Counted from the first letter of the stretch, positions 3,612 to 63,832 are shown. The stretch is 64,000 nt of DNA from Candidatus Omnitrophota bacterium (GCA_043800555.1 JAZDMX010000008.1:5340-69339); one strand, 5' to 3'. Notes: a model not told the origin generated them from the sequence alone. A program made the numbers and translations.

Positions 3612-3705
3612 AGGGGACGTTTCTACTTTTCTCACGCTCTGGCTGCCGGAAAAGTAGAAACGTCCCCTATTTTCTATCAGGCTCGAGAAAAGTAGAAACG
3701 TCCCC
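3612..3705. repeat. Palindromic intergenic repeat, locus 1. Left arm 3612-3631 (AGGGGACGTTTCTACTTTTC), 17-nt loop, right arm 3649-3667, and an extra isolated right arm at 3686-3705.
   Basis: The arms are exact reverse complements (GGGGACGTTTCTACTTTTC / GAAAAGTAGAAACGTCCCC). The same 20-mer pair recurs at four other loci in the window. Confidence 0.9.
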
Positions 3706-3712
3706 ATTTTCT

Positions 3713-6700
3713 TTATACCACCAGCGACAGGCGTTCTTCTCCCAGGAGGTCTTCGATTTCTTTAATTAATTTCTCTGAAGGCGATACGTAAAATCCTTCG
3801 CCAACTACCAACTGGACCCGGGATTTTGCCGGGGTGTCCAAATTCAGGTAAACCGGGATGTTCCCCCGCGAAGCGGCAAGCAGCCCTTTTAAGGTCTCAA
3901 AGACATTTTCCCTTAGCCCCGAGAGGTTAATGCTCATCGCGGTAATGAGCTTGTAAATTTCATCAAACGGGAAAAGGTCGTTAACCAGTATTTTAGGCGT
4001 GTCCTCTTTCAGGCTCAAGGTGCCTCTTACCAAAACTACGCTATTGGGCTGGATATAGCGGGAAACTTTCTGGAAGGAGCGCGGGAAAACCAGCAGTTCT
4101 ACCGAGCCATTTAAATCCTCCAGTTTTAATATCGCCATCTTCTCCTGTTTTGCGCGCGTGATAGTGTGTTTAACTTTGCAGATTAATCCGACGATTTTTA
4201 CTTCGTCTTCGTCCTTATGCTGGCGCAAATCACTGATTGAAGATGAAACAAAGCGTTTTAATTGCCGGGCGTAACGCGCCAAAGGATGGCCGCTTACATA
4301 AAACCCGAGCATTTCCTTTTCAAACGCCAATAGCTGCGGCTCCGGCCACTCGTGGATTTGGGGCGTTTCGTTTATAATCTCTTTAAAGCCGTTAGCGGAT
4401 AAGCCCTGGTCAAAGAAAGAAAGCTGCCCTTTGGCTTTCTCTTTTTGATTGCGGGAAGCCGCTTCCAGGATCAAGCTTAAGGAGGCAAACATCTTTGCCC
4501 GCGATATTTTAAAAGAATCCAGCGCCCCGCACTTTATCAGGCTTTCTAAAACCTTGCGGTTGGCTAAGCGTAAATCCACCCTCTGGCATAAATCTTCCAG
4601 GCTGGCGAATTTCCCGGATTTCCTGGCTTCGACAATCGATTCAACAGCCCCTACCCCGACATTTTTGATTGCCAGCAATCCGAAGCGGATGGTTTTTTCG
4701 TCTTCGACCTTGAACAAAGCGCCGCTTTCGTTTATCTCCGGGGGCGAAACCGTTATGCCCATGCGCCCGGCTTCCGCCACGTATTCAACGATTTTGTCCG
4801 TATTATCGCGCTCGGAAGTAAGCAGCGCGCTCATAAATTCCACCGGGTAATTGGCTTTCAGATAAGCGGTGCGGTAAGAAATAAGCGCGTAGGCGGTGCT
4901 ATGGCTCTTGTTGAAGCCGTACCCGGAAAAATATTCGATCAGGTCAAAAATCTTGGTGGCGGTGGATTCTTTGATGCTGTTTTTAAGGCAGCCGTGGATA
5001 AAATTGCTCCTTTGCTTCTCCATAACCTCGGGAATTTTTTTGCCCATAGCTTTACGCAAGATGTCCGCCTGGGCGAGGCTAAAGCCGCCTAAAAGGGAGG
5101 CAATTTGCATGATCTGTTCCTGATAAACCATAATGCCGTAGGTTTCCTTAAGCACCGGCTCGAGCTTGGGGTGTTCGTATCTAATGGGGATAAGGTTATG
5201 CTTGCGTTTCATAAAATCGTTAAGCATCCCCGAACCAATCGGCCCCGGCCGGTATAAAGCCAGCAAAGCGATCAAGTCCTCGAAACGTTCGGGCTCCAGT
5301 TTCTTAAGCAAATCGCGCATCCCGGAGCTTTCAACCTGAAAGACCCCCATAGTTTGCGCCGAGGCCAGGAGCTTGTAGGTGTTTTTGTCGTCGAGAGGAA
5401 GTTTCCGGACCTCGATATCTTTGCCCCGGGTTTCCTTGATTATTTTTACTGCCTGGTCTATGACGGTAAGCGTCCTTAAGCCCAGAAAGTCGACTTTCAA
5501 AAGGCCGATCTTTTCCAGTATCCCCATGCTAAAGCCGGTAGTTATCTGGCCGTCGCTGGTTTTAAAAAGCGGGCTGTAGTTGCTCAAGGGCTTATCGGCA
5601 ATCACAACCCCCGCCGCGTGCACCGAAGCGTGGCGGTTTAACCCCTCCAGGGCCAATCCCGTAGTAATCAGCTTAGTTACCTCGGGGTCGTTCTTGTAGA
5701 GGTTATTTAACTCCGGTTCGCTCTCAAGGGCTTTCTTGAGCGTCATATCGATTTCCGGCGGGATCATTTTGGCGATCCGGTCGACATCAGCGTAACTCAT
5801 TGCCATGACCCTGCCCACATCGCGCACAACCGCGCGCGCCTGCATCGTCCCGAAAGTAATGATCTGGGCAACGTTTTCCTGGCCGTATTTTGCGGTAACG
5901 TAATCAATGACCTCTTGCCTTCTTTCGTAACAAAAGTCTATATCGATATCCGGCAGGCCCATTCTTTCCGGGTTTAAGAACCTTTCGAAAAGCAGGCCGT
6001 ATTTTAAAGGGTCCAGGTCGGTAATCCCCAAAAGATAGCTCACCAGGCTGCCTGCGGCCGAGCCCCTTCCCGGGCCGACCGGGATTCCTTTGCTTTTGGC
6101 GTAATGGATGAAGTCCCAGACGATGAGAAAGTAACTGACAAACCCCATATCCTTGATGATCTTAAGCTCATGTTCCAGCCTGGCCGTAACCTCATCGCTT
6201 ACCTTGGCGTATTTTTCCTTGATCCCGGCATCGCAGAGTTCTTTTAAGTATTCTTCCTTTGTTTTGCCGACCGGGGGCTCATATTTAGGCAGGTGAACTT
6301 TCTTGAAATCCAGCTCCAGGTTGCAGCGGGAAGCTATTTCGCAGGTATTGGAAATGGCCTCGGGGGTTTCCTTAAAAAGCGTTTTCATCTCCTGCGGGGA
6401 TTTAAAATAAAATTCATCGGTTTGAAAACGCATCCGGTTGGGGTCTTCCAGCGTAGCCTGGGTTTGGATGCACAAAAGCGCTTCGTGGGAAACCGCTTTA
6501 TCGCGCGTCAGGTAATGCACGTCGTTTGTGGCGGCTAAAGGCAGGTTTAATTCTTTGGCTATCCGGATTAATCCGGCATTGACGCCTTTTTGCTCGGGGA
6601 TTGAATTCTCCTGGATTTCCAGGTAAAAATTATCCTTGCCGAAAATATTCCGGTAGGTGTCTGCCAATTTTAGCGCGTCATTAAAGCGTTTTTGCTGGAT

Positions 6701-7166: not shown

Positions 7167-8708
7167 TTATTCCCACTCGATAGTCGCGGGAGGCTTGGAA
7201 GAAATGTCGTAGACTACCCTATTTACGCCTTTTACTTCGTTAATTACGCGGTTTGAGATCTTTTCCATAATTTCATAGGGAAGCTTGACCCAGTCGGCAG
7301 TCATCCCGTCGAAACTGGAGACGCAGCGGATGGCTACGACATTCTCATAGGTGCGCTCATCCCCCATAATCCCTACGCTCTTTATCGGAAGCAATATGGC
7401 GAAAGATTGCCAGATTTGTTCGTATAAGCCGGCTCCCTGTATTTCATCAATAACCCGTTTATCGACCTCGCGCAGGATATTCAGGCGTTCTTCGGTGACC
7501 TCTCCGATAATCCTGATGGCTAAGCCCGGGCCCGGGAATGGCTGGCGCCGGATTATCGAGTCGGGCAGGCCCATTTCCCTGCCGATGGCGCGGACTTCAT
7601 CTTTGAATATTTCGCGTAGCGGCTCAATGAGCTTCAGCTTCATATGCGCCGGAAGGCCGCCTACATTGTGGTGGCTCTTTATTTTGCGGCTGGGCGCCCC
7701 GCTGGGCGAAATTGATTCGATTACATCCGGATAAAGCGTCCCCTGGGCAAGGAACTTCACCCCTTTTACCTTATCGGCTTCTTCCTCGAAAGTCTTGACG
7801 AATTCATCGCCGATTATTTTCCTTTTTTCTTCCGGGTCGGTAATTCCTTTAAGGCGGGCGAGGAATTTCTTGCTCCTGTCGACATAGCCCAAATTCAGGT
7901 GGTATACGTCGCGGAAGACTTTCTTTACTTGTTCGGGCTCGTCTTTCCTAAGCAAGCCGTTATTGATAAAGATGCAGCGGGAATTCTTGTTGATGGCCTT
8001 ATGCAGCAATAAAGCCGCTACCGAGGAATCAACCCCTCCGCTTAACCCTAAAACGACCTTATCATTTCCGATTTGTTTCTTTAAGTTGTCAATCGTTTCT
8101 TTGATGAAAGACTGCATTGTCCAGCGGCTTAAGCATCCGCATATCTTAAAGAGGAAATTTCCCAGGATCTGGTTGCCTTTTTCCGTATGCGTTACTTCCG
8201 GGTGGAACTGCACGGCGAAAATCTTCTTTTTGGCATTGGAGATCGCCGCCACCGGCGTGTTCATCGTGTGGGCGCTAACGCGGAACCCCGCGGGGACCTT
8301 GGTTACGAAATCCCCGTGGCTTGCCCAGCAGGTGAAATTCCCCGGGATATGGCTGAACAGGTCCCGGTTGTCGTCGATAAATAGCTCGGCCTTGCCGTAT
8401 TCCCGGCCTTTGGTGTGCTTGACTTTTCCCCCCAGCATCTCCGAGATGACCTGCATCCCGTAACAAATTCCCAGTATTGGCACCCCCAGCTTGAAAATTC
8501 CTTTGTCCGGGACAGGGCTCTTCTTATCTACCACCGAAGCCGGGCCTCCGGAGAAAATTAAGCCCTTGGGGAGCATCGCGGCTATTTCTTTTGCCGGGGT
8601 ATTATAGGGGATTATCCTGGAGAAAACCTTATTTTCCCTGACCCTGCGGGCAATAAGTTGTGTATATTGCGAACCAAAATCCAAAATAAGCACTGTTTGC
8701 CTGCCCAT
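7167..8708 (-). CDS. guaA: GMP synthase (glutamine-hydrolysing)
   Basis: 513 aa. Class I glutamine amidotransferase domain with catalytic Cys, then the ATP-pyrophosphatase SGGVDSSV P-loop and GMP synthase C-terminal domain. Confidence 0.95.
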   Translation of the reverse strand: MGRQTVLILDFGSQYTQLIARRVRENKVFSRIIPYNTPAKEIAAMLPKGLIFSGGPASVVDKKSPVPDKGIFKLGVPILGICYGMQVISEMLGGKVKHTKGREYGKAELFIDDNRDLFSHIPGNFTCWASHGDFVTKVPAGFRVSAHTMNTPVAAISNAKKKIFAVQFHPEVTHTEKGNQILGNFLFKICGCLSRWTMQSFIKETIDNLKKQIGNDKVVLGLSGGVDSSVAALLLHKAINKNSRCIFINNGLLRKDEPEQVKKVFRDVYHLNLGYVDRSKKFLARLKGITDPEEKRKIIGDEFVKTFEEEADKVKGVKFLAQGTLYPDVIESISPSGAPSRKIKSHHNVGGLPAHMKLKLIEPLREIFKDEVRAIGREMGLPDSIIRRQPFPGPGLAIRIIGEVTEERLNILREVDKRVIDEIQGAGLYEQIWQSFAILLPIKSVGIMGDERTYENVVAIRCVSSFDGMTADWVKLPYEIMEKISNRVINEVKGVNRVVYDISSKPPATIEWE

Positions 8709-10022: not shown

Positions 10023-10036
10023 GCGAAATAAAAAAA

Positions 10037-10111
10037 GGGGGACGTTTCAAAAAAAAGGGGGACGTTTCTACTTTTCTGGCTTTAGGTGCGGGAAAAGTAG
10101 AAACGTCCCCC
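10037..10111. repeat. Palindromic intergenic repeat, locus 2. Partial left arm 10037-10048, full left arm 10057-10076, loop TGGCTTTAGGTGCGG, right arm 10092-10111.
   Basis: AAAAAAGGGGGACGTTTCTACTTTTC...GAAAAGTAGAAACGTCCCCCTTTTTT, a perfect 20-bp stem flanked by an A-run and a T-run. Confidence 0.9.
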
Positions 10112-10137
10112 TTTTTTCAAGTCGCCTCTCTTTTTCC

Positions 10138-10725
10138 CTATTCTTTCTCCAGATGGCTGTCCACATAAACCGCCAGCAGCTCGGCTACCTTGGGCGGAGG
10201 GGTAACATTAAAATAATGGTCTATAATCGCATGGCCCATTTCATGGGCAATTACCGAGTCTGTAATGTCCTGCATTGAGGAAAAGATCATCTCGAGGTTA
10301 TGGATGTAAAAAGACCGGTAATTTTGCCGGGAACCGAAAATACGGTAATATTCGTTATTCAGCTCTTCGCGGTTATTGAAAACCTTGATTTTCAGGTTCA
10401 TATACGGCGGGTTCATCGCCAGTATCCTTTTTGCCCTTAGGAGTATTGATTCCAGCCGGGCAGTGATCCGGTTTTCTATCCTATATGCCGGGTTAGCAAA
10501 CAGGTCTTTTTCCACCGTTGAAACCGAAAAGTAACGGCTGCGCAGCCGGCTCTCCAGCTTGCGGAGATTGGTATCGGCGGGGTATAACAAAGTCACCTCT
10601 CTGCCTTTAGCGGCCAGCCAATCCGGCGTTTCGCTGAACGCATAGCTCTGCCCGGCTAAAGCCTTCCCGGCTTGCCCTGTTAACATGACCCCGCAGAAAA
10701 TCAAGATTATTATACGCGTCTTCAT
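10138..10725 (-). CDS. Secreted hypothetical protein with an HExxH zinc-metallopeptidase motif
   Basis: 195 aa. N-terminal signal peptide MKTRIIILIFCGVMLTGQAGKALA, and a C-terminal VIAHEMGHAIIDHYF motif. Confidence 0.5.
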   Translation of the reverse strand: MKTRIIILIFCGVMLTGQAGKALAGQSYAFSETPDWLAAKGREVTLLYPADTNLRKLESRLRSRYFSVSTVEKDLFANPAYRIENRITARLESILLRAKRILAMNPPYMNLKIKVFNNREELNNEYYRIFGSRQNYRSFYIHNLEMIFSSMQDITDSVIAHEMGHAIIDHYFNVTPPPKVAELLAVYVDSHLEKE

Positions 10726-11317: not shown

Positions 11318-11813
11318 TGACCCGCGCGGTATTTAAATTTATGCTGTTTAAGGTATCGTCATACTTATGTATTTTTGCCTCCTGCTTTAAGCCTTTAATC
11401 CAGAGGTCCAGCAGCGCCTGGGCGTTCTCTTTCTTTTGCGCGTCATTCTCCCCTTTTGCCGCGGCCAGGAATTCCGCGCCTTTTATGTTGATCAGCCTTT
11501 TGATAAGCGCCTGTTTCCAGTAATTCTCGACCTCTTTCATAAAATCCCTGTTTTTATCCAGGCCCATCCGCTCTGCCTGCTGTAAAATAAGCTCATTAGT
11601 GACAATGTCGTTATAAAGCTGTTCCTTGATTGCCCCGGAATTGTCATTCTGGAGCATATAGGGCAGGTTCAACTTTGCCTCCTGCATAAAATCATCCACG
11701 GTCAGCTGGTAGTTATTTATTTGCGCGACTACCTGCTTTTTGCCGGCCGGCGCCTTAGCGCATCCGGCGAAGAGCGCGGCAATTAGCAGAAGCAATATGA
11801 TTAGTCTGTTCAT
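11292..11813 (-). CDS. Lipoprotein with a SurA-N-like chaperone domain
   Basis: 173 aa. The lipobox LFAGC follows a signal peptide. The rest is predicted helical and resembles the SurA N-terminal domain. Confidence 0.4.
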   Translation of the reverse strand: MNRLIILLLLIAALFAGCAKAPAGKKQVVAQINNYQLTVDDFMQEAKLNLPYMLQNDNSGAIKEQLYNDIVTNELILQQAERMGLDKNRDFMKEVENYWKQALIKRLINIKGAEFLAAAKGENDAQKKENAQALLDLWIKGLKQEAKIHKYDDTLNSINLNTARVNEGGANEE

Positions 11814-11891: not shown

Positions 11892-12770
11892 TTATTTAAC
11901 ACCTTCCATTGCCATATTAATTCGTTCGAGTGCCTTATCCAAATCGAAATTTTCGCGCTCAGCTGGAGATAGGACGTCGAATAACTCGGTTTTGATGCGA
12001 AAGCGCATATCTTCAATCTCAGTATTTTTACGCCCCATATTGACGGAATATTTCGTTAAATCCAAATCCCCGCCATCTTCCCCTATTTTCTTCTTAAAAA
12101 GTTTAACTACCTCTTTATCCGCAATATTGAATTTGTTGCGGAGAAGAAAATCAAGATCGTAAAAATCGCGCGGGGCAATAGGTTCTCTTAGGGCCGCGGC
12201 GCGAAGTTTCTCGCTTACGATTTCATTAAGAGACAGGCAGGCGGCCTTGCCTCCGTCAAAAAGAGGCTCTCCCGTAAATGGATGCGTATACGTATGATGA
12301 ATCTGCTTTTTTTCTACCGGATCAATAGGGTTAAATCTTAAGCCGACTTCAAACTTAATTTGTCCTTTGTTCGGGCGCAGGGCTGATTGATAAGAAAAAT
12401 AATACACATATTGTTTTGACTCGTCCCTCCCGGGATTTCCAGCGTCAACAATCTTCATATCGAACTGTTCCACAAATTTTGAGATCTTATCCTTTACGGG
12501 TTGGATACATTTTCTCCGCTCTCCTCGGGTCGCCTCATACCGCGGAAGCTTCATGCTAAAATCAAGGTCTTCGCTCAAACGATAATATGCGTAATAAATC
12601 TTATTCAGGCAGGTCCCGCCCTTAAAAACGAGGTCTTCGGTAAGTTCGTGTACCCGGGAAAGGACCAAAGTCAAATAGTAATCTTTCTCCAACAAAGGCG
12701 GCAGAAATCCTTTTTTCTTTGCCGCCCTTTCCAATGTTTTTACAAATTCATCTTTATTTTTGTGAATCAT
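11892..12770 (-). CDS. AbiEii/AbiGii-family nucleotidyltransferase toxin (DUF1814), toxin-antitoxin pair 1
   Basis: The motif FKGGTCLNKIY...RLSEDLDFS is the nucleotidyltransferase signature of AbiEii toxins. I chose the ATG at 12768-12770 (MIHKNKDEF..., GGAGAG Shine-Dalgarno) rather than the ORF-track start at 12857, which would overlap the antitoxin by 104 nt. Confidence 0.8.
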   Translation of the reverse strand: MIHKNKDEFVKTLERAAKKKGFLPPLLEKDYYLTLVLSRVHELTEDLVFKGGTCLNKIYYAYYRLSEDLDFSMKLPRYEATRGERRKCIQPVKDKISKFVEQFDMKIVDAGNPGRDESKQYVYYFSYQSALRPNKGQIKFEVGLRFNPIDPVEKKQIHHTYTHPFTGEPLFDGGKAACLSLNEIVSEKLRAAALREPIAPRDFYDLDFLLRNKFNIADKEVVKLFKKKIGEDGGDLDLTKYSVNMGRKNTEIEDMRFRIKTELFDVLSPAERENFDLDKALERINMAMEGVK

Positions 12771-13554
12771 TGATGATAACTCTCCACTTCTTATTGAGCG
12801 TGCCTTTACGTGATCCGGTAAACGTAGTAACCGCGGTTTTTTTAACGCTATCAACAAGAGGTTTTAGCATGGCTTCCGTAAGGTTCGATTCATCAAGAAT
12901 CAGCCCAATACGTTTCCTCGTTTTTATATTAGGGAATAGCGCGGCATATTCCACCAGCTTTTTAATATCGCATTTCTTTTCTATGACAAATTGCTTTAAT
13001 ACTTCTCCGGCAGTTTTGATTCCGCCAACGGGCTTATTAAAATAAATCAAGTCGATCAATGTCCGTTCTTTGGAACTAATAATGACATCGGCGTCCTTAA
13101 CCTTAATTGTTTCCAGGCCATAAAAACGGCTTTCCGGAATCCTTATGAATTTGTAGGAAATACCACAGATAACCTTTTCTATCCGGATAGTAGTATTAAG
13201 AATGTAAACCGTCTGAAAGAGTTGCTCGGTAAAGCCGTAATAATTGAACAGGGTCGAATAGCCAACGTAATAATTCTTTTTAGGGAAAAAGAGCGGCGGG
13301 ATAAGCAATTCATCGATGCCGGTTCCTTCCGGGCCAGCCTCAAGCGGCGAGAACGCATAGGTGCCGCGTTTAATAGCAGTAAGTATTTTCTTCTTCTTGA
13401 GCCGGAAAACAATCTGTTTTCTATCTGCGGGGGAAAGCTTAAACAGGCGATCGAGATATTCGACTGTGACAATCGTCTTCTTTTCGTATGTTAAACGGGC
13501 GACGATATTGGTCTCAATCGGCCCTAAAGTTTTAGATGTATTATTCGGTATCAT
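12754..13554 (-). CDS. AbiEi-family antitoxin / transcriptional regulator, toxin-antitoxin pair 1
   Basis: 266 aa. The N-terminal winged-helix carries the AbiEi motif LKKKKILTAIKRGTYAF. It lies directly upstream of the AbiEii gene in antitoxin-then-toxin order. Confidence 0.75.
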   Translation of the reverse strand: MIPNNTSKTLGPIETNIVARLTYEKKTIVTVEYLDRLFKLSPADRKQIVFRLKKKKILTAIKRGTYAFSPLEAGPEGTGIDELLIPPLFFPKKNYYVGYSTLFNYYGFTEQLFQTVYILNTTIRIEKVICGISYKFIRIPESRFYGLETIKVKDADVIISSKERTLIDLIYFNKPVGGIKTAGEVLKQFVIEKKCDIKKLVEYAALFPNIKTRKRIGLILDESNLTEAMLKPLVDSVKKTAVTTFTGSRKGTLNKKWRVIINDSQK

Positions 13555-13779: not shown

Positions 13780-15153
13780 TTACCTTGAAAACTCCCGAAA
13801 AATAATGACACTAATTGTTTTAAGGATGATCTGGACATCTAAAAAGAAAGACATATTCTTTAGGTAAAACATATCATATTGGAATTTTTCAAGGGCCGAT
13901 TCCTTTGACGCGCTATAAGAATAACGCACCTGCGCCCATCCGGTAAGCCCCGGCTTAACGGTATGTCTTAACGAATAATAAGGGATGCTTTCCGCATAAT
14001 CCCTGGATAAGCTAACCGCTTCCGGCCTTGGCCCGACAAGGCTCATATCTCCTATAAAAATATTCCAAAGCTGCGGTAGTTCATCAAAGCGCACCTTACG
14101 GATAAACCTTCCAACCCGAGTAATTCTGGCGTCATTCGTTGAGGTATAGATTCCTCCGTCCTTCTTCTCGGCGCCAACTACCATGGAACGGAACTTATAC
14201 ATCAAGAACTCCTTGCCATTTTCGCCAATACGAGGCTGCTTGTAAATCACCGGGCCTCGCGATTCAATCTTTATGGCTAAGGCAACAATAAGCATAATAG
14301 GCAAAGAGATAACCAGTCCAATCATTGACAAAATAATGTCAAACCATCTTTTGCACTGTAAATATATATGGCTCGACATCGCTGAAAATGAAGAAAAAAT
14401 AAGCCATCCTTTGCGGATATGTGAAACAGGGATTTTTCCCGTTAACTCTTCGGAAAGATAAGCAACGTCTGTAACCTGAATATGCCTCATCTTAACGGCC
14501 AATAAGGTATCCCAAAGCGCAGGGGACTTTTCGTGCGTAATCGCCACAACTACAAGATCAACCAGCGCATCCTTGCTTAACGACAACAAAACATCTGTTC
14601 CACCCAATACCTTAACCCCATGGATCAGATCGCCTCGTTTACCGGCATCGTCATCAATAAATCCCACCATTTCATAATCGCGCTTACCTTTGAGGACATC
14701 ATAAATGTGCTTCCCGGAGTGACCTGCGCCGACAATAACCATCCTTTTCTTGGAAAAACCCGTCACAAGATAATCTTCAAAAATAAACCTCCAGAAAAGA
14801 ACAAATAATGAAGTATAAAATGCGCTTAAAAGTGCGATGCCGCGGCCGACCTTAAGAAGAGGAATTGAATAAGAAAGTACGGCGGTGAAAAGAAAGCTGA
14901 AGAATACTGCTACGATGAAACGGGAAACAAAATATGAGCTTCTGAACCGCTGGTGTCCTTCGTAAAGTTTAAAAATATAAAAATTCACCAAATAGGTCGC
15001 TACTAGTATTGCTACAGGGAGCTGATAAGAGATAAATGCGCGATGAAAGCTGCCATAACGAGTAAAGCTAGAAAGCGCGAAAGCCAGGAAGATAGCAGAG
15101 ATATCCCCGAGTACTAAAATTGGTAATTTTATACGGTTCCCGACTTTATGCAT
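13780..15153 (-). CDS. Polyprenyl-phosphate glycosylphosphotransferase, the initiating sugar transferase (WbaP/CpsE-like)
   Basis: 457 aa. N-terminal transmembrane segments and a CoA-binding-like domain, then a C-terminal Bac_transf domain with KRWFDIILS...YKFRSM...[22 protein letters not shown]. Confidence 0.9.
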
Positions 15154-15156
15154 AAT

Positions 15157-16200
15157 TTATCTCGTAACAGGCAGATCAGAAAGTTTGATTCTTAAATGTT
15201 TTCTCAATATCCAAAAATCAAGTATACCTCGTAAATAATTAAATCCAAAAGTGAAGTGTATTAAAATAAACGCCCAGACAAGTAACGGGAATAGCCTCCA
15301 ATCTTTTCCAAAAGAAAGTTTTACCGAAGCCACGATATTAGCCAAAAGATATGCTCCAATATCCAAACACAATAAAAAACCAAAGACCGTATAAAATATG
15401 CTTCCTAGACTTAGAAACAGCACTGAAGCAACAAATAACGCCGGAATAAATTGACGAACAGTAAACACCCCGCCAAGCTTAACCGCTGTAAATGCTTTAA
15501 AATAGCCATACTGAGAATACATCCTCACCATTTTTCTAAATGTCTCCCGAGCATAATAATAGGATACGATATCAGGCACTAATAATATTTTTCCACCATT
15601 TTTTATGATTCTATGATTCAATTCCGAATCTTGGGCGCGCACCATATCTTCATCAAAAAGGCCAACTTTATCAAAGGTTTTTTTAAAAAAACACCCAAAC
15701 GGCACAGTTTCTACATAGGTCGGCTCTTTTACTCCCAACTTATAAGAAACGTTTCCGACGCCGAACCCGCATGAGGTCGCCTTTGCAATAGCCTGAGCAA
15801 TCAAAGTATCTGCACCCGGTAAGGTTATCCATATTCCTCCAACATTATCTACTCTATATTCGTTAAGATATTTAACGCACTTTGAAATATAATCTTTAGG
15901 ATATTTATTATGCGCATCCATACGAATAATAATTTCTCCCTTCGCCTGACGAATAAGGATATTCAAACCCGAAGGAACGATCATCTTGGGATTATCAAGC
16001 CAACGCACTAGCGGAAATTTCAGTACATAATTATCAAGGATCTTTCGAGTGCCATCAATACTTCTTCCATCGGCAACAAGAATTTCCATCTGATTCTGAG
16101 GATAATCCTGCGTCAAAACAGAATTAAGGCATTTACCGATGAATTTTTCTTCGTTTCGGCAAGGGATTATTATTGAAACTAGTGGGATATTATTTTCCAT
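15157..16200 (-). CDS. Family 2 glycosyltransferase
   Basis: SIIIPCRNEEKFIGKCLNSV with a DxD-type GT-A fold, and a C-terminal transmembrane tail. Confidence 0.8.
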   Translation of the reverse strand: MENNIPLVSIIIPCRNEEKFIGKCLNSVLTQDYPQNQMEILVADGRSIDGTRKILDNYVLKFPLVRWLDNPKMIVPSGLNILIRQAKGEIIIRMDAHNKYPKDYISKCVKYLNEYRVDNVGGIWITLPGADTLIAQAIAKATSCGFGVGNVSYKLGVKEPTYVETVPFGCFFKKTFDKVGLFDEDMVRAQDSELNHRIIKNGGKILLVPDIVSYYYARETFRKMVRMYSQYGYFKAFTAVKLGGVFTVRQFIPALFVASVLFLSLGSIFYTVFGFLLCLDIGAYLLANIVASVKLSFGKDWRLFPLLVWAFILIHFTFGFNYLRGILDFWILRKHLRIKLSDLPVTR

Positions 16201-16330
16201 ATTTTCTAATTAGCTAGCACCTTTAGTAATATCTTAAAGGCAAATGTTCTATTTTCCAGCGATAACGTTTTTTCAGACATACGGTTATATTAATTTAGTA
16301 ATAAGCAATAGAGCTAGTATTTTTTCAATA

Positions 16331-16945
16331 CTAATTTTGGTAGACCTGCATTAATTCCGCACATATTTTTTCGCTATTAAAATCTCTTATTATCTTATCT
16401 CTGCCAGAGATACTCAGCTTATTATAGTATACAGTATCATTAATCAATGTTTCTATAGCATTCGCTAATTCTTCGGCAGAACTTGGATTGACTAATATTC
16501 CCTCATTGTATCCGACTAATTCCGAAATTGATCCTGTCTTAGTTGAAATAACCGGAATACCATTGGCCATTGCTTCCATTAATGCCACGGGAATCCCTTC
16601 ATGTTCACCAGCCCTTAATACTACACTAGGCAATACAACAGAATCTATATCTCCTTTTTGATACATATCAATTATTTGTTCATGCGGAAGACATCCCTTA
16701 AACTCTATACAGTCAAGCAATCCGTATTTAGTAACTATTGTTTTTAATTCTGATTCCAACGGTCCGGTACCAGCTATAAGATATCTTATTCTTAATGATT
16801 TATGCTTAAGTATACCGCACGCTTCAATCATATAACAATGACCTTTTATTGGCAATAGGTTAGCGGGTGTTATTATAGTAAATATTTTCTTACTTACTCC
16901 ACTTCCTCCTTTTTTATTTAGGCAGAAGGATTCTTGAATACGCAC
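16331..16945 (-). CDS. Family 4 glycosyltransferase, C-terminal domain only (possibly a truncated remnant)
   Basis: 204 aa. The motif EGIPVALMEAMANGIPVIST belongs to the Glycos_transf_1 domain. The N-terminal GT4 domain is missing, and the preceding gene ends 13 bp upstream. Confidence 0.6.
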   Translation of the reverse strand: MRIQESFCLNKKGGSGVSKKIFTIITPANLLPIKGHCYMIEACGILKHKSLRIRYLIAGTGPLESELKTIVTKYGLLDCIEFKGCLPHEQIIDMYQKGDIDSVVLPSVVLRAGEHEGIPVALMEAMANGIPVISTKTGSISELVGYNEGILVNPSSAEELANAIETLINDTVYYNKLSISGRDKIIRDFNSEKICAELMQVYQN

Positions 16946-16957
16946 CTCTACTAAATA

Positions 16958-18109
16958 TCAAGATATTAAGTTACTCACTTTCGATATATAATCGATTGCT
17001 ATTTTATCCCATGTCAAATTTTGTTTAGCATATTCCTGCGCATTTTTACCTTTAATAGGAATCTCAGCACGATGATCAAAAATAAATTTTAACGTCTCAA
17101 AAATAGAATTTACATTTGCATCACATAGCCAGCCACCATCGCCATTGCGTATAATTTCTTGCATGTTAGTTCCTGGGGTTACCACGCAAGGCTTCCCCAT
17201 CGCCATTGCTTCGATCACAGCGGTCGGCATACCCTCATAACGAGATGTATGAACAAAGACATCAAAACTTGACATAGCGCGCCATTTATCTTCACCGCCT
17301 AATGCCCCAGACAAAATAACACGATCAGAGAAATTTCCGAGTCGCATCAACAGTCGATTGAAGATTTGTTGATCTCTCGATGAGAAGAAGCTACCGACTA
17401 TTACCAGCTTCCATCTTAAATTAGGGAATTGAGCCCCGACAATAGAAAAAGAGTTTAATAAAAGATCAATGCCCTTGTGATCAATATCTATTCTTCCGAT
17501 AAAACCAAATATTAAACAATTATCACTGCTACTGCTTTTCATATAAATCTTGGAGAAGCTCTCAAAAGATATACCATTGGGAATGACCGTAGTCATCTTG
17601 CCCGGATAGCGTTTTTTCACTATTTTTTCTTCTGCTTCATTCAAAACATAAACTGCAGTCGCTTGGCGCATGAAAGTATCAAAAAACAATACATTACCGA
17701 AAAACTTCTTTAAAGGTTTCCTTCTTTGAGCTCCGTCAAATAAACCACCATGCGGCGATACTATATACTTCCATCCTTTTCGTACTATCAAACGAGCAAG
17801 AGCGCTATGAAAAGGCCTGTAAACTCCATGAAAATGAACAATATCCGGATGACCAAACTCGGTTAAAATCTTATCAATCCATACATTATCCAGAAAAAAT
17901 GGATTTTGATGCTCCTTTTTTAGCCCTTTGATTAAAATAATCTTCTTATGCAAGAAGAGTTTCTCTTTTAAAACTTCTTCAGCCAGTGAACACAATACGC
18001 AAACATGACAATCAGCAGTATCAACTAATGCTTTCGTCAATTCGACGACATAGTTTGAAACACCTGAAAACCTATCAAACCGAATTGGGGCAACGTGCAA
18101 TATATTCAT
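16958..18109 (-). CDS. Family 4 glycosyltransferase
   Basis: 383 aa. Both halves of the GT-B fold are present. The C-terminal motif is SRYEGMPTAVIEAMAMGKPCVVT. Confidence 0.85.
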   Translation of the reverse strand: MNILHVAPIRFDRFSGVSNYVVELTKALVDTADCHVCVLCSLAEEVLKEKLFLHKKIILIKGLKKEHQNPFFLDNVWIDKILTEFGHPDIVHFHGVYRPFHSALARLIVRKGWKYIVSPHGGLFDGAQRRKPLKKFFGNVLFFDTFMRQATAVYVLNEAEEKIVKKRYPGKMTTVIPNGISFESFSKIYMKSSSSDNCLIFGFIGRIDIDHKGIDLLLNSFSIVGAQFPNLRWKLVIVGSFFSSRDQQIFNRLLMRLGNFSDRVILSGALGGEDKWRAMSSFDVFVHTSRYEGMPTAVIEAMAMGKPCVVTPGTNMQEIIRNGDGGWLCDANVNSIFETLKFIFDHRAEIPIKGKNAQEYAKQNLTWDKIAIDYISKVSNLIS

Positions 18110-18303
18110 ATTTTATCTTGATAGAATGGAAACATAGTCTGGATAAAAATATTGTTGACTTGATAGATAAAAACATAGTATGCTTAAGACACAAACGCAA
18201 AGCCCCCAAATAAACCTCGTTTTTATATCATTTGATAATAACAAAAAACTCGTAATTAAAACAGGCTCTCATATGCTTAACAATTCCCCACCACGAGCAG
18301 AAA

Positions 18304-19191
18304 TTATTGCCATATCATTAAAGAGCAGTCTCCAAACAAGTCCACCGCAATACAATAAAAAAACAAATTGAAGTATTTAACTTTATTAGATAAAATTTCG
18401 CGAAGAAAAAGAGCAATACCAACAATAAGATATGATTGAATCATACTTGGACGTAAAATTCCTAAAGCATAACCATATCTTTCATTGCCATAATAATTTA
18501 TTCCTTTATCAATCAAATCATTCGACGAATTAAATATTGGTAACCAACCGCTGGTATCAGAATCATTTTTTTCTAAAATAGTGGATTTACGAAACGTTGG
18601 TAGCTATGTGATTAATTGACCAAAGTGTTTTTTAAATCCGCTGAGCCTTTGACTAAACAACGAATCATTTCTTGGCTGACTGCAAATAATTATTGCTTTT
18701 TCATCACAATTAAACGCCTTTTGCAGTATAACTTTGAACCCCTCAGATGTTGCCAATAGATATGTAAAATAATTATATTTCATGTTTTCGTAACCCTTTT
18801 CAAGATTACCGATAGTTTTTAAAGGCATGCCATGCCAAAGATTAACAACTATCTGGTTATCGCCAGGCTCTATAGGGTATTTACCGAAGCAATAAAAGAA
18901 ATATTTCGATGTAAAAAAATGAAATAATCCTAAAAACTCATTAGTTACAATTACATTATGAAGATTTTTAGACTGTATATCTTTTGATTCATTTGTACTA
19001 CACACTATTATATATCTATTATTAAATCCATTGTCAATTAAATAACCAAAAAGCGCCCTAACATTCTCTCTAAAACCGAAATTCGAATAAAGCATTATCT
19101 TATTAGGCTTCTTCGGAATTATTCGGTTAATAAAATTAAATATTATAAATAATTTTTTTATTAGAGTTCTATGCTTGTTTAGAGTAACCAT
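18304..19191 (-). pseudogene. CDP-glycerol glycerophosphotransferase (TagB/TagF)-like gene interrupted by an in-frame TAG at 18604-18606
   Basis: The N-terminal part ends ...LWHGMPLKTIG...KKHFGQLIT, then TAG. The same frame continues LPTFRKSTILEKND...LMIWQ, matching the TagF family WHGxPxK and PTFR motifs. TAG is a genuine stop codon here, because cdaA and a PilZ gene both end with TAG. Confidence 0.65.
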
Positions 19192-19269
19192 CGAGTCCTG
19201 TCCATCAATTACAAGCTTTCCGCAAATTAATTTCGTTGCTAGTCAAACTTAGTTACTGCCTATTTATTT

Positions 19270-20238
19270 TCAGATCTGGCGCAAAATTATTCTTTTAAAC
19301 AAACGAAACAATTTAACAATGGGTATAGGTAGAAAAGTTAATAAAAGTAACAACAACCTTTTGTTTTTGAAACTAGTTGTTCTGTTTTCAATTAGTAACT
19401 GTCTAGCGGTATTAATTTCTCCCTTTACTATACACCTGCCTGCTCGTTCGATTTCTTTCATACTGATATACTCAGCTAAATATACTTTATTCTCATCCGA
19501 TATCTCAGAATCTAAAATTGCTTCACGGGCGGTTTTTACAAATCTATACTGAGTTATTGAATAGTCTGTAGGAGATACCCTATTCAACGCGTTTCTATAA
19601 TATACAGCTCCTATAACATTACTAAAAGCTATTGAATATTTCAAACTTACTCGTAGCCACATGTCAAGATCTCCACCGAGCTTTTCCCCAACCGGAAACT
19701 TACCAGCTGTATCAAATACTGTTTTAGGAATAACGGTAGCAGAAGAACAGACGGGTGGATTACCCAACGCTGATTCAAAATAATTAGGTATTATGCCTTC
19801 CCATGGATATCTTGGAATAGCTTTGAATTTAACTCTTACTATCTGGCCGTTTGGCTCTTTTCTTTCATATGCTGTAGCATAAGCTCCTGCATTTGGGTAA
19901 TTGGTTTTTAGCCTCAAAATCGTTTCAAGAAATTGAGGTTTCCATTCATCGTCAGCATCTAGAAATGCAATTAAACTTGTCTTTACCTCATCTATCCCCC
20001 TGTTTCTTGCAGCACATTCTCCCTGATTTCTCTGTTGGATAATTCTAATCCTATCATCCCGTATCTTTTTAATAACTTTTGCGCTATTGTCGGTTGAGCC
20101 ATCGTCAATAACAATAATCTCAAAATCTTGTATAGTTTGACTTAGGACTGAATTAATGGCTCTAGATATGTACCGCTCCTTATTATAAAGCGGAATAACT
20201 ACACTGATTTTAGACATTGTAATTGTATTAATTATCAA
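19270..20238 (-). CDS. Family 2 glycosyltransferase
   Basis: ISVVIPLYNKERYISRAINSVLSQTIQDFEIIVIDDGSTDNS. Confidence 0.85.
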   Translation of the reverse strand: MIINTITMSKISVVIPLYNKERYISRAINSVLSQTIQDFEIIVIDDGSTDNSAKVIKKIRDDRIRIIQQRNQGECAARNRGIDEVKTSLIAFLDADDEWKPQFLETILRLKTNYPNAGAYATAYERKEPNGQIVRVKFKAIPRYPWEGIIPNYFESALGNPPVCSSATVIPKTVFDTAGKFPVGEKLGGDLDMWLRVSLKYSIAFSNVIGAVYYRNALNRVSPTDYSITQYRFVKTAREAILDSEISDENKVYLAEYISMKEIERAGRCIVKGEINTARQLLIENRTTSFKNKRLLLLLLTFLPIPIVKLFRLFKRIILRQI

Positions 20239-21398: not shown

Positions 21399-21461
21399 AT
21401 GTTTATTATGTAAAAAATATTTCTAATTCAATAATTTCTAATAAAAGTCTTTGTGGAATTA

Positions 21462-24884: not shown

Positions 24885-24920
24885 AATTTGCGCCAGCTAT
24901 TTGGGTTAGCCCTAGCAATC

Positions 24921-25889: not shown

Positions 25890-25903
25890 AGGTTTACTTT
25901 AGA

Positions 25904-25968
25904 TAAGGCGTATATTTATCAACGGTTTTCCGGTAATTCCTGCTATAAGGCTTAAGCTCAAGCGCCTG
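25904..25968. repeat. Cassette-boundary direct repeat, copy 1 (65 bp; the most diverged)
   Basis: taaggcgtatatttatcaacggttttccggtaattcctgctataaggcttaagctcaagcgcctg. Homologous to 28087-28169 and 29682-29764. Confidence 0.85.
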
Positions 25969-26313
25969 AGCAAGTCGGGTAAAGATGCCCTCTATCTAAC
26001 AATTCAAATTTATCTGCAAGCATAGAAATAATCAGACTTAATCAATCCGCATAGCCAATGGCTGAGGATACCAATTTAATCGTCCATCCGTCGTTTTGGC
26101 GGTCATGAAGCGGACGAGTCGTTGTTTAACAAAAGGTAAAAAAGGAATCGGTCTGTACTGAACAACCACAGCTATGTCAGCAAAACTAACGGGACTAATA
26201 TTAAACTGCCTCAAAGGGAATCTGACAGTATATTTATCAGTGTTTTAGCTTCACTGCCATTATGCCTTTTGGCCTGTTATAAAACTACAGGCCATGGTTT
26301 TTCCCCTTCTGCG

Positions 26314-27345: not shown

Positions 27346-27351
27346 AATTTT

Positions 27352-27951: not shown

Positions 27952-27968
27952 AATATCAACCTTTTTCC

Positions 27969-36194: not shown

Positions 36195-37862
<1,668 letters not shown>

Positions 37863-60724: not shown

Positions 60725-62578
60725 TTATGAGGCGGGGTCTGATTTCTGTATGCCTAACAGAAGCTTGACCTCTTCTGCGCTCATTACTTCCTTATCGATA
60801 AGGGCTTCGGACAATGTTTTTAATTTATCCAGGTTTTTCCCCAGCAGGCTTTTCGCCATTACGTAGGCGTCTTCGACTATCCTCCTTACCTCTTCGTCGA
60901 TTAATCGCGCGGTCTCTTCGCTGTAATTTCTTTCTTCCATAATGTCTTTACCCAAAAAGACCAGGCCTTCCCTGCGGCCCAGGGTGATATTGCCTAATTT
61001 ATCCGACATCCCGAATTGAGTAACCATGCGCCTGGCCATGCCGGTAGCCATCTCAAGGTCGTTTTGCGCGCCGGTAGTTACTTCGGAAAGGTTAAGCTCT
61101 TCGGAAGCGCGCCCTCCCAGCATCATGGCTATCTCGGCGCTTAATTCCCTTTTTGTCCAATAGTGCCTGTCTTCCAACGGAGGAGTAAATGTATAACCTC
61201 CGGCAAGCCCTCGGGGGATAATCGAAACCTTCTTTAGGGGGTTAACTTCAGGCAATAATAAAGATAACAGGGCGTGCCCTGATTCATGCAAGGCGGTGAT
61301 CTGTTTTTCTTTCTTCGATATAATATGGCTCTTTTTTTCCGGCCCCATAAGCACTCTCTCGACGGATTTATCCAGGTCGGTTTCCTCGACCACTTCTTTT
61401 CCGTTCCTGGCAGCAAGGAGCGCGGCTTCATTACAAAGGTTTGCCAGGTCCGCTCCCGAGAAACCCGGGGTCTGCGAAGCGATTGACTTCAAATCGACGG
61501 AGGCGGCAAGCTTGATTTTACGCGTATGGACCTTAAGGATTTCTTCCCTGCCTTTAATATCCGGCAGGTTGACGATAATGTTGCGGTCAAACCTTCCGGG
61601 GCGCAAAAGCGCGGGGTCTAATGTATCCGGCCGGTTAGTCGCGGCGATAAGGATTAACCCTTTCAGGGAATCGAAACCGTCCATTTCAACCAAAAGCGCG
61701 TTTAAGGTCTGTTCGCGCTCGTCATGGCCACCGCCGATGCCTGAAAAACGCAGGCGGCCGACGGCATCTATTTCATCAATGAAAATAATCGCGCCTTTTC
61801 CGGATACCTTCGCGGCGCGCCTTCCTTGCTCAAAGAGGTCTCTTACGCGGCTGGCTCCCACGCCGACGAACATCTCGACAAAATCCGATCCGCTGATAGA
61901 GAAAAAAGGCACGCCCGCTTCCCCGGCAACCGCCTTGGCAATCAATGTCTTTCCGCAGCCCGGAGGGCCGACCAGTAAAACCCCTTTGGGTATTTTGCCG
62001 CCGAGCTTCTGAAACCTTTTCGGGTCCTTCAAGAATTCGATTACCTCTTTAAGCTCTTCCTTGGCTTCCTCTACCCCGGCCACGTCGTTAAAGGTTACTT
62101 TCTCGATCCCGCTATGCACTTTGGGGACGGCTTTTCCAAAAGTCATGATTTTATTCCCTAACTGCTCTCCCCGGGCGGCCATCATCCACCAGAAAAATAT
62201 CAAAAGCAGTATCGGGCCCAGGTTAAAAAGCAACGAAGACCAGAACGTGCGCGGCGGTTTTACGTCGAACGCCCGGACATTCTGGCGTAAAAGATTAAGC
62301 AACTCCGGGTCGTTATCAGGTATGTTTACCAGGAATTTAGAGTTATCCGTAAATTCCCCCTGCAAAAGGGTTTCCATCTTGACTACCGATTTTATCCTAT
62401 CCGGGTTATTCTTCAGGGTAGAGTAAAAACTGCCGTAGGTGATCTCTTTAGGCAACCCATTCATCGGGATGTTGATGGAATTCAAAATTATAAAAACCAG
62501 GATAATCCCGATTATCCAGCCAAACGGTGAACGCTTAAGCACATTTTTCTTTGCCATTATTTTACCTTTCTGCTGCAA
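60725..62578 (-). CDS. ftsH: ATP-dependent zinc metalloprotease FtsH
   Basis: 617 aa. Two transmembrane segments, an AAA domain with GPPGCGKTL, the SRH motif, and the HEAGHA zinc site (HESGHA). Confidence 0.97.
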
Positions 62579-62596
62579 GAGTTTTTAAGAACTATA

Positions 62597-62625
62597 ATTA
62601 TAACTTTAACTAGCCGCAAAAGCAA
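62597..62625 (-). promoter_or_regulatory. Sigma70-like promoter: TTGCTT, 17-nt spacer, TATAAT, upstream of ftsH
   Basis: On the minus strand: acTTGCTTttgcggctagttaaagtTATAATtatag. It lies downstream of palindromic repeat locus 4. Confidence 0.55.
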
Positions 62626-62659
62626 GTATTTTATGGAGTTACGACATGTAAGACGAAAA

Positions 62660-62714
62660 GGGGGACGTTTCTACTTTTCTTAAACCTGATTACGGAAAAG
62701 TAGAAACGTCCCCC
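62660..62714. repeat. Palindromic intergenic repeat, locus 4. Left arm 62660-62680, loop TTAAACCTGATTACG, right arm 62695-62714.
   Basis: The same 20-mer arms as at the other loci. It lies between the tilS stop and the ftsH promoter. Confidence 0.9.
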
Positions 62715-62735
62715 TTTTCGGAAACGCCACTCTTT

Positions 62736-63704
62736 TCATTGCCTGCGGTAGAAGATAACGGCCTTTTTATTTTTGACAACGGATATGCCTTTAGGCAAAT
62801 CAACTATGGAATTGTCCGGGCGGTTGGCTATTAAATCCTCAATTTCGTTTATGTGAGTAAAGCTTATGCGCCGGGCCGAACCCTGCAGCTTAAAGATATT
62901 TAAGCGCAACACCATCCGCTGCATTGCCGGGTGGAGTTTCGCGTAATCCGCCAGCTTGACCCTTCCTCTTTTGCCCTTGATTTCACGCAAGGCCGATTGG
63001 GCCAAGTAATCGTAATCCAAAGCGGCGCCTTCAGACATATTGCTTAAAATATCTTTGATCTTCGGATTGTATTCTTTTTCAAGCAAGGGGATCAAACGGT
63101 TACGCAGCCTGTTTCGCAGGAAAATATCTTCTTGATTGGTTTTATCGATGCGGAATTTTATCTTTTTTTGTTTCAGGAAGGATTCGATTTCCCGGCGGCG
63201 GGTCCGGATTAACGGCCGGATAACCTTATAACCGCGGAATTCCCTCTTGGGGAGAATAGCGGATAAGCCATATAGGCCGGAGCCCCTTAAAATGCGCATA
63301 AGGACCGTCTCGGCCTGGTCATCGAGGTTGTGGGCCAGGGCTATTTTTCCGGCCTTTATTTTTTTAGCGGCCTTAAACAGGAATTCCAAACGCGCGTTCC
63401 TGGCAATTTCTTCCAGGCTGCCTTTGGGGCGGCTCCTTTTTAAATCCGCCTTGCCGATAGTAACCGGTATGCCTAATTTTAAACCCAATGACCTTACGAA
63501 TTCCGCATCTTTGAAAGAGTCCTTACGCAACATATGGTCGAAGTGGGCAATCTGCAACCTGAACCCCAAAATACCGCTTAATGAGTTAAGCAAATAAAGC
63601 AAGCTAACGGAATCCGGCCCGCCGGATACCCCGATCAGCACCAGGTCCCCTCTACTAATTAATTTATATTTCTTAATCGCCTCTTTTACCTTCTCCAGTA
63701 TCAT
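62736..63704 (-). CDS. tilS: tRNA(Ile)-lysidine synthetase
   Basis: 322 aa. The PP-loop LIGVSGGPDSVSLL is present. Confidence 0.9.
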   Translation of the reverse strand: MILEKVKEAIKKYKLISRGDLVLIGVSGGPDSVSLLYLLNSLSGILGFRLQIAHFDHMLRKDSFKDAEFVRSLGLKLGIPVTIGKADLKRSRPKGSLEEIARNARLEFLFKAAKKIKAGKIALAHNLDDQAETVLMRILRGSGLYGLSAILPKREFRGYKVIRPLIRTRRREIESFLKQKKIKFRIDKTNQEDIFLRNRLRNRLIPLLEKEYNPKIKDILSNMSEGAALDYDYLAQSALREIKGKRGRVKLADYAKLHPAMQRMVLRLNIFKLQGSARRISFTHINEIEDLIANRPDNSIVDLPKGISVVKNKKAVIFYRRQ

Positions 63705-63743
63705 CTTAGCTATTATATTACCATAATTAATCCATAAAAAAAA

Positions 63744-63832
63744 GGGGGACGTTTCTACTTTTCTAGCTTTAGGCGCGGGAAAAGTAGAAACGTCCCCCTT
63801 TTTCAGGCGCGGGAAAAGTAGAAACGTCCCCC
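63744..63832. repeat. Palindromic intergenic repeat, locus 5. Left arm 63744-63763, loop TAGCTTTAGGCGCGG, right arm 63779-63798, and a second right arm at 63813-63832 preceded by a duplicated loop end CAGGCGCGG.
   Basis: The same 20-mer arms as at the other loci. It lies upstream of tilS. Confidence 0.9.

Follow-up and report, generated by a model that had tools for sequence, protein, structure and literature searches.

The DNA analysed here, a 64,000-nt stretch (the window) of a 69.4-kb contig from a Candidatus Omnitrophota metagenome-assembled genome (MAG; locus tags V1869_), carries the same long, perfectly paired hairpin at five junctions between genes. With a probability of roughly 0.7, we consider these sites to be copies of a mobile hairpin, non-autonomous and functioning as a terminator module. 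The hairpins have the anatomy of intrinsic terminators and lie directly after stop codons, the family extends to another contig of the same genome and to a second phylum, where alleles with and without the element exist at the same gene junction, and sequence changes in the stems are compensated on both sides. From this anatomy, position and set of alleles we infer that the element terminates transcription and that an enzyme mobilizes it. The element would thus be a small, non-coding palindrome whose transcript, from either strand, is predicted to form a perfect hairpin of 25-26 bp, with a G/C-rich base and a U-tract, which would make it a ready-made two-way intrinsic terminator. It would insert at new sites with no obvious target-site duplication, would rely on an enzyme acting in trans, and would have moved between phyla, its arms being kept complementary through selective pressure on pairing, template switching inside the palindrome, or a combination of the two.

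When both strands of the window were searched for the arm, the 20-mer GGGGGACGTTTCTACTTTTC, with three or fewer mismatches permitted, 12 matches were found, and none of 100 dinucleotide-preserving shuffles contained any match. A first-pass annotation of this DNA had described the arms as identical over 20 bp. This holds exactly for seven of the 12 arms, but the other five have A or T in place of G at the outermost base, and the invariant core common to all 12 is therefore the 19-mer GGGGACGTTTCTACTTTTC. All five of the perfect inverted repeats that had been reported were recovered by an exhaustive search for perfect stems, with a few coordinates corrected by one position. Their stems are 100% complementary over 25-26 bp rather than 20 bp because complementarity continues into the flanking A- and T-tracts, which bears out the A-run and T-run flanks noted earlier. 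The order of parts is an A-tract, an arm of 19-20 nt, a variable loop, the complementary arm, a T-tract, and one or two tails on one side, giving an element of approximately 70 bp (69 nt for a full copy) that reaches as much as approximately 110 bp with its tail. The stem base reads GGGG(G)ACG...CGTC(C)CCC and is followed by four to nine T residues, with the A-tract on the other side. Loop lengths in copies 1 through 5 are 17, 15, 15, 15 and 15 nt. The loop consensus TRGCTTTAGSYRCGG, which had been given for three loops, fits copies 2, 3 and 5, but the loops of copies 1 and 4 are unrelated to it.

Outside the five sites, the only sub-word of the arm of at least 9 nt is a T-rich one at 28565 and 33337, and so the motif is strictly intergenic in the window and confined to these five sites. 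No further long hairpin of the family type exists in the 64 kb; the perfect stems of 12 bp or more at 27969 and 59463 are unrelated to it. The only open reading frames (ORFs) that cross the elements are spurious. Such ORFs remain open through the palindromes in several frames (GDVSTF...KVETSPFF), as is the case for positions 3420-3707 on the minus strand of the window and for V1869_04700, and they can be mistaken in annotation for proteins or N-terminal extensions.

Nearly all genes of the window, including all those surrounding the copies, lie on the minus strand, and the distance from each copy to the preceding stop codon of a minus-strand gene is 0-20 nt. The full copies are assigned no strand, and the tails are given the strand on which they read as an arm end followed by a T-run. 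Copy 1 (3606-3674; arms 3612-3631 and 3649-3668; 17-nt loop 3632-3648) follows dnaE, whose stop codon occupies 3713-3715. Its 26-bp stem reaches GAAAATAGGGG.../...CCCCTATTTTC, and its plus-strand tail (3675-3711), which begins 1 nt past the stop codon, comprises 12 nt that resemble loop sequence, then a complete right arm (3687-3706), then TTTTC. The variant ...CTCGAG-arm-CCCCATTTTC present in this tail matches the copy found in a second Omnitrophota lineage (L002, see below). Copy 2 (10049-10117; arms 10057-10076 and 10092-10111; loop TGGCTTTAGGTGCGG) lies 20 nt past the stop codon of a gene for a 195-aa secreted protein (10138-10725, minus strand) and is abutted by a minus-strand tail (10030-10048), GAAACGTCCCCCTTTTTTT, which represents a 5ʹ-truncated arm end plus a T-run. 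Copy 3 (36122-36190; arms 36128-36147 and 36163-36182; loop TGGCTTTAGCTACGG) is positioned 4 nt past the stop codon (36195-36197) of groEL (36195-37850, minus strand), and carries two minus-strand tails in succession (36095-36121), which read CGCGTCCCCTTTTTT and then CACCCTTTTTTT.

The remaining two copies reside near one end of the window. Copy 4 (62654-62720; arms 62660-62679 and 62695-62714; loop TTAAACCTGATTACG), whose stem ends are CGAAAA.../...TTTTCG, sits between tilS and the ftsH promoter region. Its plus-strand tail (62721-62737), GAAACGCCACTCTTTTC, is degenerate; compared by eye with GAAACGTCCCCCTTTTC, it agrees at 14 of 17 positions, and it overlaps the stop codon of tilS. Copy 5 (63736-63804; arms 63744-63763 and 63779-63798; loop TAGCTTTAGGCGCGG) is located between tilS (start codon at 63704) and a gene that ends at approximately 63865, about 10 nt past the stop codon of the latter. 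Its plus-strand tails (63805-63854) consist of the 34-nt unit AGGCGCGG with a right arm at 63813-63832 and TTTTTC, followed by a degenerate stretch, TTTCGTCCTTTTTTTC, that was recognized by eye alone. The arm at 63813-63832 belongs to a 34-bp tandem duplication. Thus, the extra right arms of copies 1 and 5 that had been remarked upon earlier are genuine, as are the partial left arms at 10030-10048 and 36107-36121, the latter joined by a still shorter one at 36095-36106.

Across the copies, RNA folding energies are predicted to lie between -39.5 and -55.6 kcal/mol (z-scores between -6.8 and -10.4). Individual values are -53.3 kcal/mol for the copy 1 region including its tail (z = -7.6), -48.9 kcal/mol for copy 2 (z = -10.4; approximately -30 kcal/mol as DNA), -39.5 kcal/mol for copy 3, -45 kcal/mol for copy 4, and -55.6 kcal/mol for copy 5 including its tail. 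Either strand reads as a hairpin followed by a U-run, and the combination of a G/C-rich stem, an immediately adjoining U-tract and a site after a stop codon is the anatomy of a two-way intrinsic terminator. Promoter-like sequences follow copy 2 (TTGACA-17-TAAAAT at 10022-9994) and copy 3 (TTGACA-17-TAGAAT at 36078-36050), each matching at 11 of 12 positions, and a weaker site matching at 9 of 12 positions follows copy 1. On the transcribed strand, copies 1 through 3 therefore present the order gene, hairpin, promoter-like site and next gene, in agreement with the earlier suggestion that the motif is reused at operon boundaries. Because the copies reside 0-20 nt after stop codons and ahead of the promoter of the next gene, they most likely act as operon-end terminators and insulators. 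The RNA duplex of 26 bp could also be a substrate for RNase III.

A conventional terminator scan, which permits only loops of 3-8 nt, yielded no more candidates in the 64-kb window than in shuffled sequence, and thus no ordinary terminator stands out in this DNA; the family copies are its sole strong structures of the hairpin-plus-U-run type. No family copy is present in the low-GC region of polysaccharide-synthesis and AbiE genes (approximately 12-30 kb). When the window was scanned with Rfam 15, only four tRNAs exceeded the threshold and no family matched the hairpin, and around copies 4 and 5 (62550-63900) the only matches were sub-threshold ones to models of long-hairpin miRNA precursors. 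The genes lacking Pfam matches beside copies 2 and 3 were considered as possible partner proteins and rejected, as they encode unrelated secreted proteins.

The terminator-like location and the A-tract/stem/T-tract anatomy might also be expected of ordinary terminators that have come to resemble each other by gene conversion or convergence, or of paired sequences of the DNA uptake sequence (DUS) type, pairs of which form terminators in Neisseria. However, an identical 19-mer in 12 arms and in another phylum is not what convergence produces, the filled and empty alleles described below show insertion, and, in contrast to uptake sequences, the motif has no lone or intragenic occurrence in the window. 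This explanation is already largely refuted, and we regard it as extremely improbable. The claim that the conserved stem and its amplified arms exceed what an ordinary terminator needs is supported, and they define a dispersed family.

Comparison with relatives places one copy in the position of a native terminator. The three proteins from genome assemblies that best match GroEL from the window are 83-85% identical to it; one of them is labelled Omnitrophica, and the next-best matches (74-80%) are mostly labelled Candidatus Omnitrophota. In four Omnitrophota relatives (L008, L009, L011 and L012), an ordinary, short and unique A-tract/stem/T-tract terminator is present right after groEL. Given that copy 3 lies at this same place, it occupies the terminator slot. 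The best TilS match to the window is 78% identical, and the collections searched contained no closer relative of the window species. In the nearest TilS relatives (76-78% identity), the tilS-ftsH spacer contains no hairpin, and only the ftsH promoter region aligns.

The clearest signs of mobility come from contigs outside Omnitrophota. The element is present at the junction between a DDAH-like gene and an aminotransferase gene in six contigs from different samples (L004, L095 and L098-L101). One of these, L004, has a GC content of 64%; its DDAH-like protein groups with a protein assigned by name to Candidatus Aminicenantes. In this GC-rich host, the element stands out as AT-rich. Its loops are 7-9 nt, as opposed to 15-17 nt in the window copies; for example, L101 has perfect 25-bp arms around the loop CCCAGGC. 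Two further contigs (L096 and L097) carry the same junction without the element, and the filled and empty alleles differ by approximately 79 nt. In the filled allele, the element supplies the TGA stop codon of the DDAH-like gene, whose 292-aa product ends in ...TRSA, whereas the products of the empty alleles are 298-299 aa in length and end in ...PPEID or ...QPEID. These alleles are, in our view, direct evidence that the element inserted and that it passed between phyla.

A second case of presence and absence was found in Omnitrophota. L002 represents a second lineage of this phylum (38% GC); the proteins closest to its LexA in the collection share 94-97% identity with it, and several of these carry the names of Omnitrophica or Omnitrophota MAGs. 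It carries a long copy with one mismatch, a 15-nt loop and a tail, and in addition a related short hairpin (1264-1295), AGGGGACGGTTCTC-taaa-GAGAACCGTCCCCT, with a 14-bp stem and a 4-nt loop. This GGGGACGGTTCTC hairpin lies in the lexA-orf102 spacer of a lexA-orf102-dinB operon, and in L093 and L094 the same spacer measures just 3-11 nt and has no hairpin. Together with the Aminicenantes alleles, this polymorphism supports the MITE-like mobility (after the miniature inverted-repeat transposable elements) that had been proposed as one reading of the motif.

The motif is also not limited to the window within its own genome. A sixth copy is found in P0121 (V1869_04700), encoded on a 115-kb contig of the same MAG, whose N-terminal part reads KKGDVSTFPESSARKVETSPFF and corresponds to a translated element with a different loop. 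Dispersal in the genome, as postulated for a repeat family, is thereby confirmed. A word-indexed translated search returned P0121 as its only match, and a HMMER profile search returned one further likely copy, P0269, which reads KKGTVSIFLALDSRKIETVPFF with a partial arm, KKGTA, before it. In NCBI this entry is a 77-aa spurious ORF on a 15.7-kb contig that reads VKKGTAKKGTVSIFLALDSRKIETVPFFGPFF. From its translated sequence, P0269 is consistent with a diverged copy with arms of approximately GGGACGGTTTCTATTTT, the same loop type and a partial arm. Four other profile matches were set aside as unrelated repeat proteins.

A scan of metagenomes yielded seven loci, among which only L002 and L004 contain palindromes. 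Four of the others (L001, L003, L005 and L007) are one sequence from four samples with a single arm and no partner, and L006 is likewise single-armed. These were set aside because a few chance matches to a 19-mer are estimated for a collection of that size. In L001 and its equivalents, the lone exact 19-mer arm is at 1998-2016, and the contig, which has only small ORFs, also contains an unrelated perfect hairpin at 3693-3761 with a 24-bp stem and a 21-nt loop (CAGCTGGCTACAATCAAGCTCAGG). A different hairpin family, ATGAGCAC..ACTTACG-loop-CGTAAGT..GTGCGAAT, was encountered in three other Omnitrophota MAGs (L010 at 11658-11683, L015 at 11758-11786 and L021 at 7305-7331), with two of its copies just after groEL. 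Lineage-specific hairpin repeats may be common in Omnitrophota.

Alignment of the arms of ten copies was used to evaluate covariation. Seven of 28 stem pairs are changed on both sides, as exemplified by four versus five G-C pairs and by T-A versus G-C at the stem base. Wobble intermediates are also present, namely a T.G pair in L002 between C-G and T-A, and a T.G pair in L098 between T-A and C-G. The covariation score is 0.21, compared with 0.11 for shuffles (none of 500 reaches 0.21) and 0.06-0.09 for slid controls. These two-sided changes and the covariation score indicate that pairing is what is conserved. Such pairing could result from selection acting on the hairpin as RNA or single-stranded DNA, or from template switching inside the palindrome, in which one arm is copied from the other.

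These findings bear on the proposal that the motif is a double-stranded binding site for a host protein, such as a global regulator or a nucleoid or segregation protein, that is maintained by selection rather than by mobility. All copies have the same 19-nt core but differ in their loops, extra half-sites adjoin the full sites, and all copies reside at operon boundaries, as such a site would predict. However, a spacer that varies from 7 to 17 nt alters the phasing of the half-sites, the two-sided stem changes keep pairing and not sequence, the same element is inserted in a different phylum with 64% GC, and the orthologous sites in the nearest relatives lack it. The suggestion of a conserved protein-binding site is accordingly weakened for a double-stranded site, which we judge highly unlikely, and its operon-boundary component stands.

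The tails provide a further distinctive feature. An abutting partial repeat of the arm accompanies each of the six Omnitrophota copies, on exactly one side (p <= 0.002), and the opposite flank is not significant in any of the six. Among the window copies, the local alignment scores of the tails are 43 for copy 1, 36 for copy 2 and 50 for the first tail of copy 5, none of which was reached by any of 500 shuffled flanks. The tail of copy 3 scores 21 (p ~0.002, shuffled flanks), and that of copy 4 scores 17 across 16 aligned nucleotides (p ~0.002). Tails always keep the end formed by CCCC and the T-run and are truncated at the 5ʹ end to differing extents, covering reference positions 1-24, 9-26, 13-25, 9-24, 1-25 and 9-24; three of them have their first base in common (GAAACG). 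A second, shorter tail is present in copy 3 and, judged by eye, seemingly in copy 5 too. The shared loop of copy 5 faces the other way with respect to the tail than it does in copies 2 and 3. Simple slipped-strand duplication was rejected as the origin of the tails, as no microhomology that would allow realignment was found at the junctions for the GAAACG-type tails.

The family may be a self-contained mobile terminator with a mechanism so far undescribed for small bacterial repeats, although we consider this reading unlikely. It might entail copying from the end of a terminated hairpin, for example by reverse transcription of a terminated RNA 3ʹ end, or alternatively hairpin-primed or rolling-hairpin DNA synthesis; either process would differ from the cut-and-paste movement of an insertion sequence (IS) derivative. 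This possibility is raised by the truncated tails, the loop inversion in copy 5, the lack of a target-site duplication, and the near-identical arms in two phyla. Like termination, the chemistry of transposition and the origin of the tails are inferred.

Tandem arms are also a characteristic of repetitive extragenic palindromic (REP) sequences and of the bacterial interspersed mosaic elements (BIMEs) that they form, a label that had been applied to the window motif. Under this explanation, the hairpins would be head-to-head REP doublets (REPINs) moved by a REP-associated tyrosine transposase (RAYT), a Y1 HUH enzyme, encoded elsewhere. The elements are indeed extragenic, dispersed and downstream of genes, the arm holds both GTAG and CGTC (GAAAAGTAGAAACGTCCCC), no clear target duplication is evident, as in HUH transposition, and REP clusters with tandem units and flanking segments have been described (PMC3733652). 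A REP unit, however, is an imperfect palindrome of 20-40 bp that folds on its own, with a stem of 6-13 bp and an unpaired GTAG or CGTC tag (PMC3733652). Single arms of the present family fold at just -0.8 to -1.7 kcal/mol (z-scores of -0.5 and +0.5), no better than shuffles, and the folding unit is the entire 69-nt element at -29 to -31 kcal/mol as DNA. The GTAG and CGTC motifs are paired inside the stem rather than exposed as tags, and no Y1 transposase is encoded among the approximately 60 proteins of the window. The REP/BIME label therefore does not fit, and we rate this explanation as unlikely.

Several observations also weigh against a mobile terminator module. The 25-26-bp stems and 15-17-nt loops are approximately twice the size of those of usual terminators (~5-14 bp and 3-8 nt), and the terminator scan did not call the full hairpins because of its limit on loop length. 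At the alignment of filled and empty Aminicenantes alleles there is no clear flanking direct repeat indicative of a target-site duplication, and the flanks of the window copies share neither a common motif nor a target duplication. Among the approximately 60 proteins of the window, no transposase, RAYT or IS with matching ends was found. The only clean pair of filled and empty sites lies in Aminicenantes and not in the lineage of the window. An exact scan for the 19-mer gave no matches in GTDB species representatives, from which it follows that the window MAG is not a species representative there, and two scans of viral contigs, one with the 19-mer and one with a degenerate palindrome pattern, likewise gave no matches and hence no phage vector. 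The exact-match scans place the element in three lineages only.

Some of these same observations also weigh against a classical MITE, that is, an IS deletion derivative whose 25-26-bp arms are terminal inverted repeats moved by the transposase of the IS. The hallmarks of MITEs are terminal inverted repeats, a length below 500 bp, a lack of coding capacity, AT-richness, and alleles that differ by presence or absence (PMC10969869). The family has inverted repeats of 25-26 bp, is non-coding and only 69-110 bp long, is AT-rich relative to its Aminicenantes host, and exists as presence/absence alleles. However, neither the filled/empty site nor any window copy has a target-site duplication, the internal segment is just 7-17 nt, the window contains no IS, no arm pair is spaced approximately 1 kb apart in any examined locus, and one-sided truncated tails are not a MITE feature. 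We rate descent from an IS as unlikely, although a target duplication and a parent IS, which would have ends of the form GAAAA(T)GGGGACGTTTCTAC, could exist outside the window and the loci examined. Among other candidates, CRISPR arrays were dropped because their spacing and structure are wrong, and integron attC sites were dropped because the neighbours are housekeeping genes and the stems are perfect.

If the five sites are indeed mobile terminator modules, then terminators in an uncultured, small-celled phylum can arrive as mobile units and need not only evolve in place. Such a module can replace a native terminator, as after groEL, and can even donate a stop codon, as in the Aminicenantes DDAH-like gene. 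The near-identical arms in Omnitrophota and Aminicenantes mark an exchange of DNA between candidate phyla known mainly from metagenome assemblies, and the 19-mer can be used as a marker for binning and strain typing. Spurious ORFs that derive from the element, such as the N-terminus of V1869_04700, are annotation errors that need correction.

Other features of the window deserve brief mention. A direct repeat of 89 nt occurs three times (25895-25983, 28088-28176 and 29683-29771; 82-100% identical) at or just beyond gene 3ʹ ends in the AbiE toxin-antitoxin region, and its copies are probably duplicated gene ends or remnants thereof. Three modules for the nucleotidyltransferase toxin AbiEii (11892-13554, 26314-27999 and 28164-29605) flank a low-GC island; their upstream neighbours in the antitoxin position are an AbiEi domain protein, a DUF6088 protein and a 212-aa protein without a Pfam match. 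The island itself (~13780-25889; 30-40% GC versus ~47-50% elsewhere), in which no hairpin copy is present, is devoted to polysaccharide biosynthesis and encodes glycosyltransferases, Wzy, a flippase and UDP-galactopyranose mutase. Two housekeeping genes each seem to be divided between neighbouring ORFs, namely those for a class I (Val-type) tRNA synthetase (41822-43840 and 43903-44511) and for an HMGL-like/LeuA-type synthase (44508-45752 and 45743-46075). These could be frameshifts, pseudogenes or assembly errors. A secreted RHS-repeat/YD-shell protein of at least 1178 aa (2-3535, minus strand) runs off the left end of the window, and its internal repeats give rise to several of the direct-repeat families of the window.

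Dispersed palindromes that resemble terminators are already known from the SPRITE, REP and Correia families, and the general principle is thus not new. The closest known element, by analogy and not by homology, is the pneumococcal SPRITE, which forms an 18-bp duplex with a U-rich tract, has AAAA/TTTT ends and is enriched next to the 3ʹ ends of coding sequences; no target duplication was established and no cognate IS was identified for it, and its authors proposed co-option as a terminator (PMC3049150). Like SPRITE, the present family is dispersed, combines a long duplex with a U-rich tract and AAAA/TTTT termini, exceeds ordinary terminators in the length of its stem and T-tract, and resides close to coding-sequence 3ʹ ends, again with neither an established target duplication nor a cognate IS. 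Unlike SPRITE, its stems are perfect, symmetric and 25-26 bp in length, with A- and T-tracts on both sides that potentially permit two-way function, and it has variable loops of 15-17 nt, one-sided truncated tails and an occurrence in two phyla. The two were compared by description; sequence kinship is not expected, because their hosts belong to different phyla.

The family shares with REP, BIME and REPIN sequences an extragenic, palindromic nature, a location downstream of genes, proposed roles in termination or mRNA stabilization, the presence of some families in distant taxa, tandem reiteration in clusters and the lack of target duplication (Di Nocera et al. 2013, PMC3733652). It differs in that its unit is one long hairpin, with arms that do not fold by themselves, no unpaired GTAG or CGTC tags, and no RAYT in the window.

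Correia elements of Neisseria (also called NEMIS) have terminal inverted repeats of approximately 26 bp, and their hairpin transcripts can terminate transcription or be cut by RNase III. They measure 100-155 bp, generate a TA target duplication, and contain an IHF site and outward promoters. These and other bacterial MITEs resemble the present family in their inverted repeats of approximately 26 bp, their long-hairpin transcripts and their presence/absence polymorphism. However, the core of the present family spans just 7-17 nt, no duplication was seen, and promoters close by are in unique flanking DNA. Finally, the canonical bidirectional terminators that follow groEL in the four relatives share with the family an A-tract, a G/C-rich stem base, a T-tract and the same position after the stop codon. 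They are unique sequences that, read by eye, have the usual loops of 4-6 nt and stems of approximately 9-11 bp before the A- and T-tracts, whereas the family copies possess a common arm of 19-20 nt, stems of 25-26 bp, loops of 15-17 nt, and tails.

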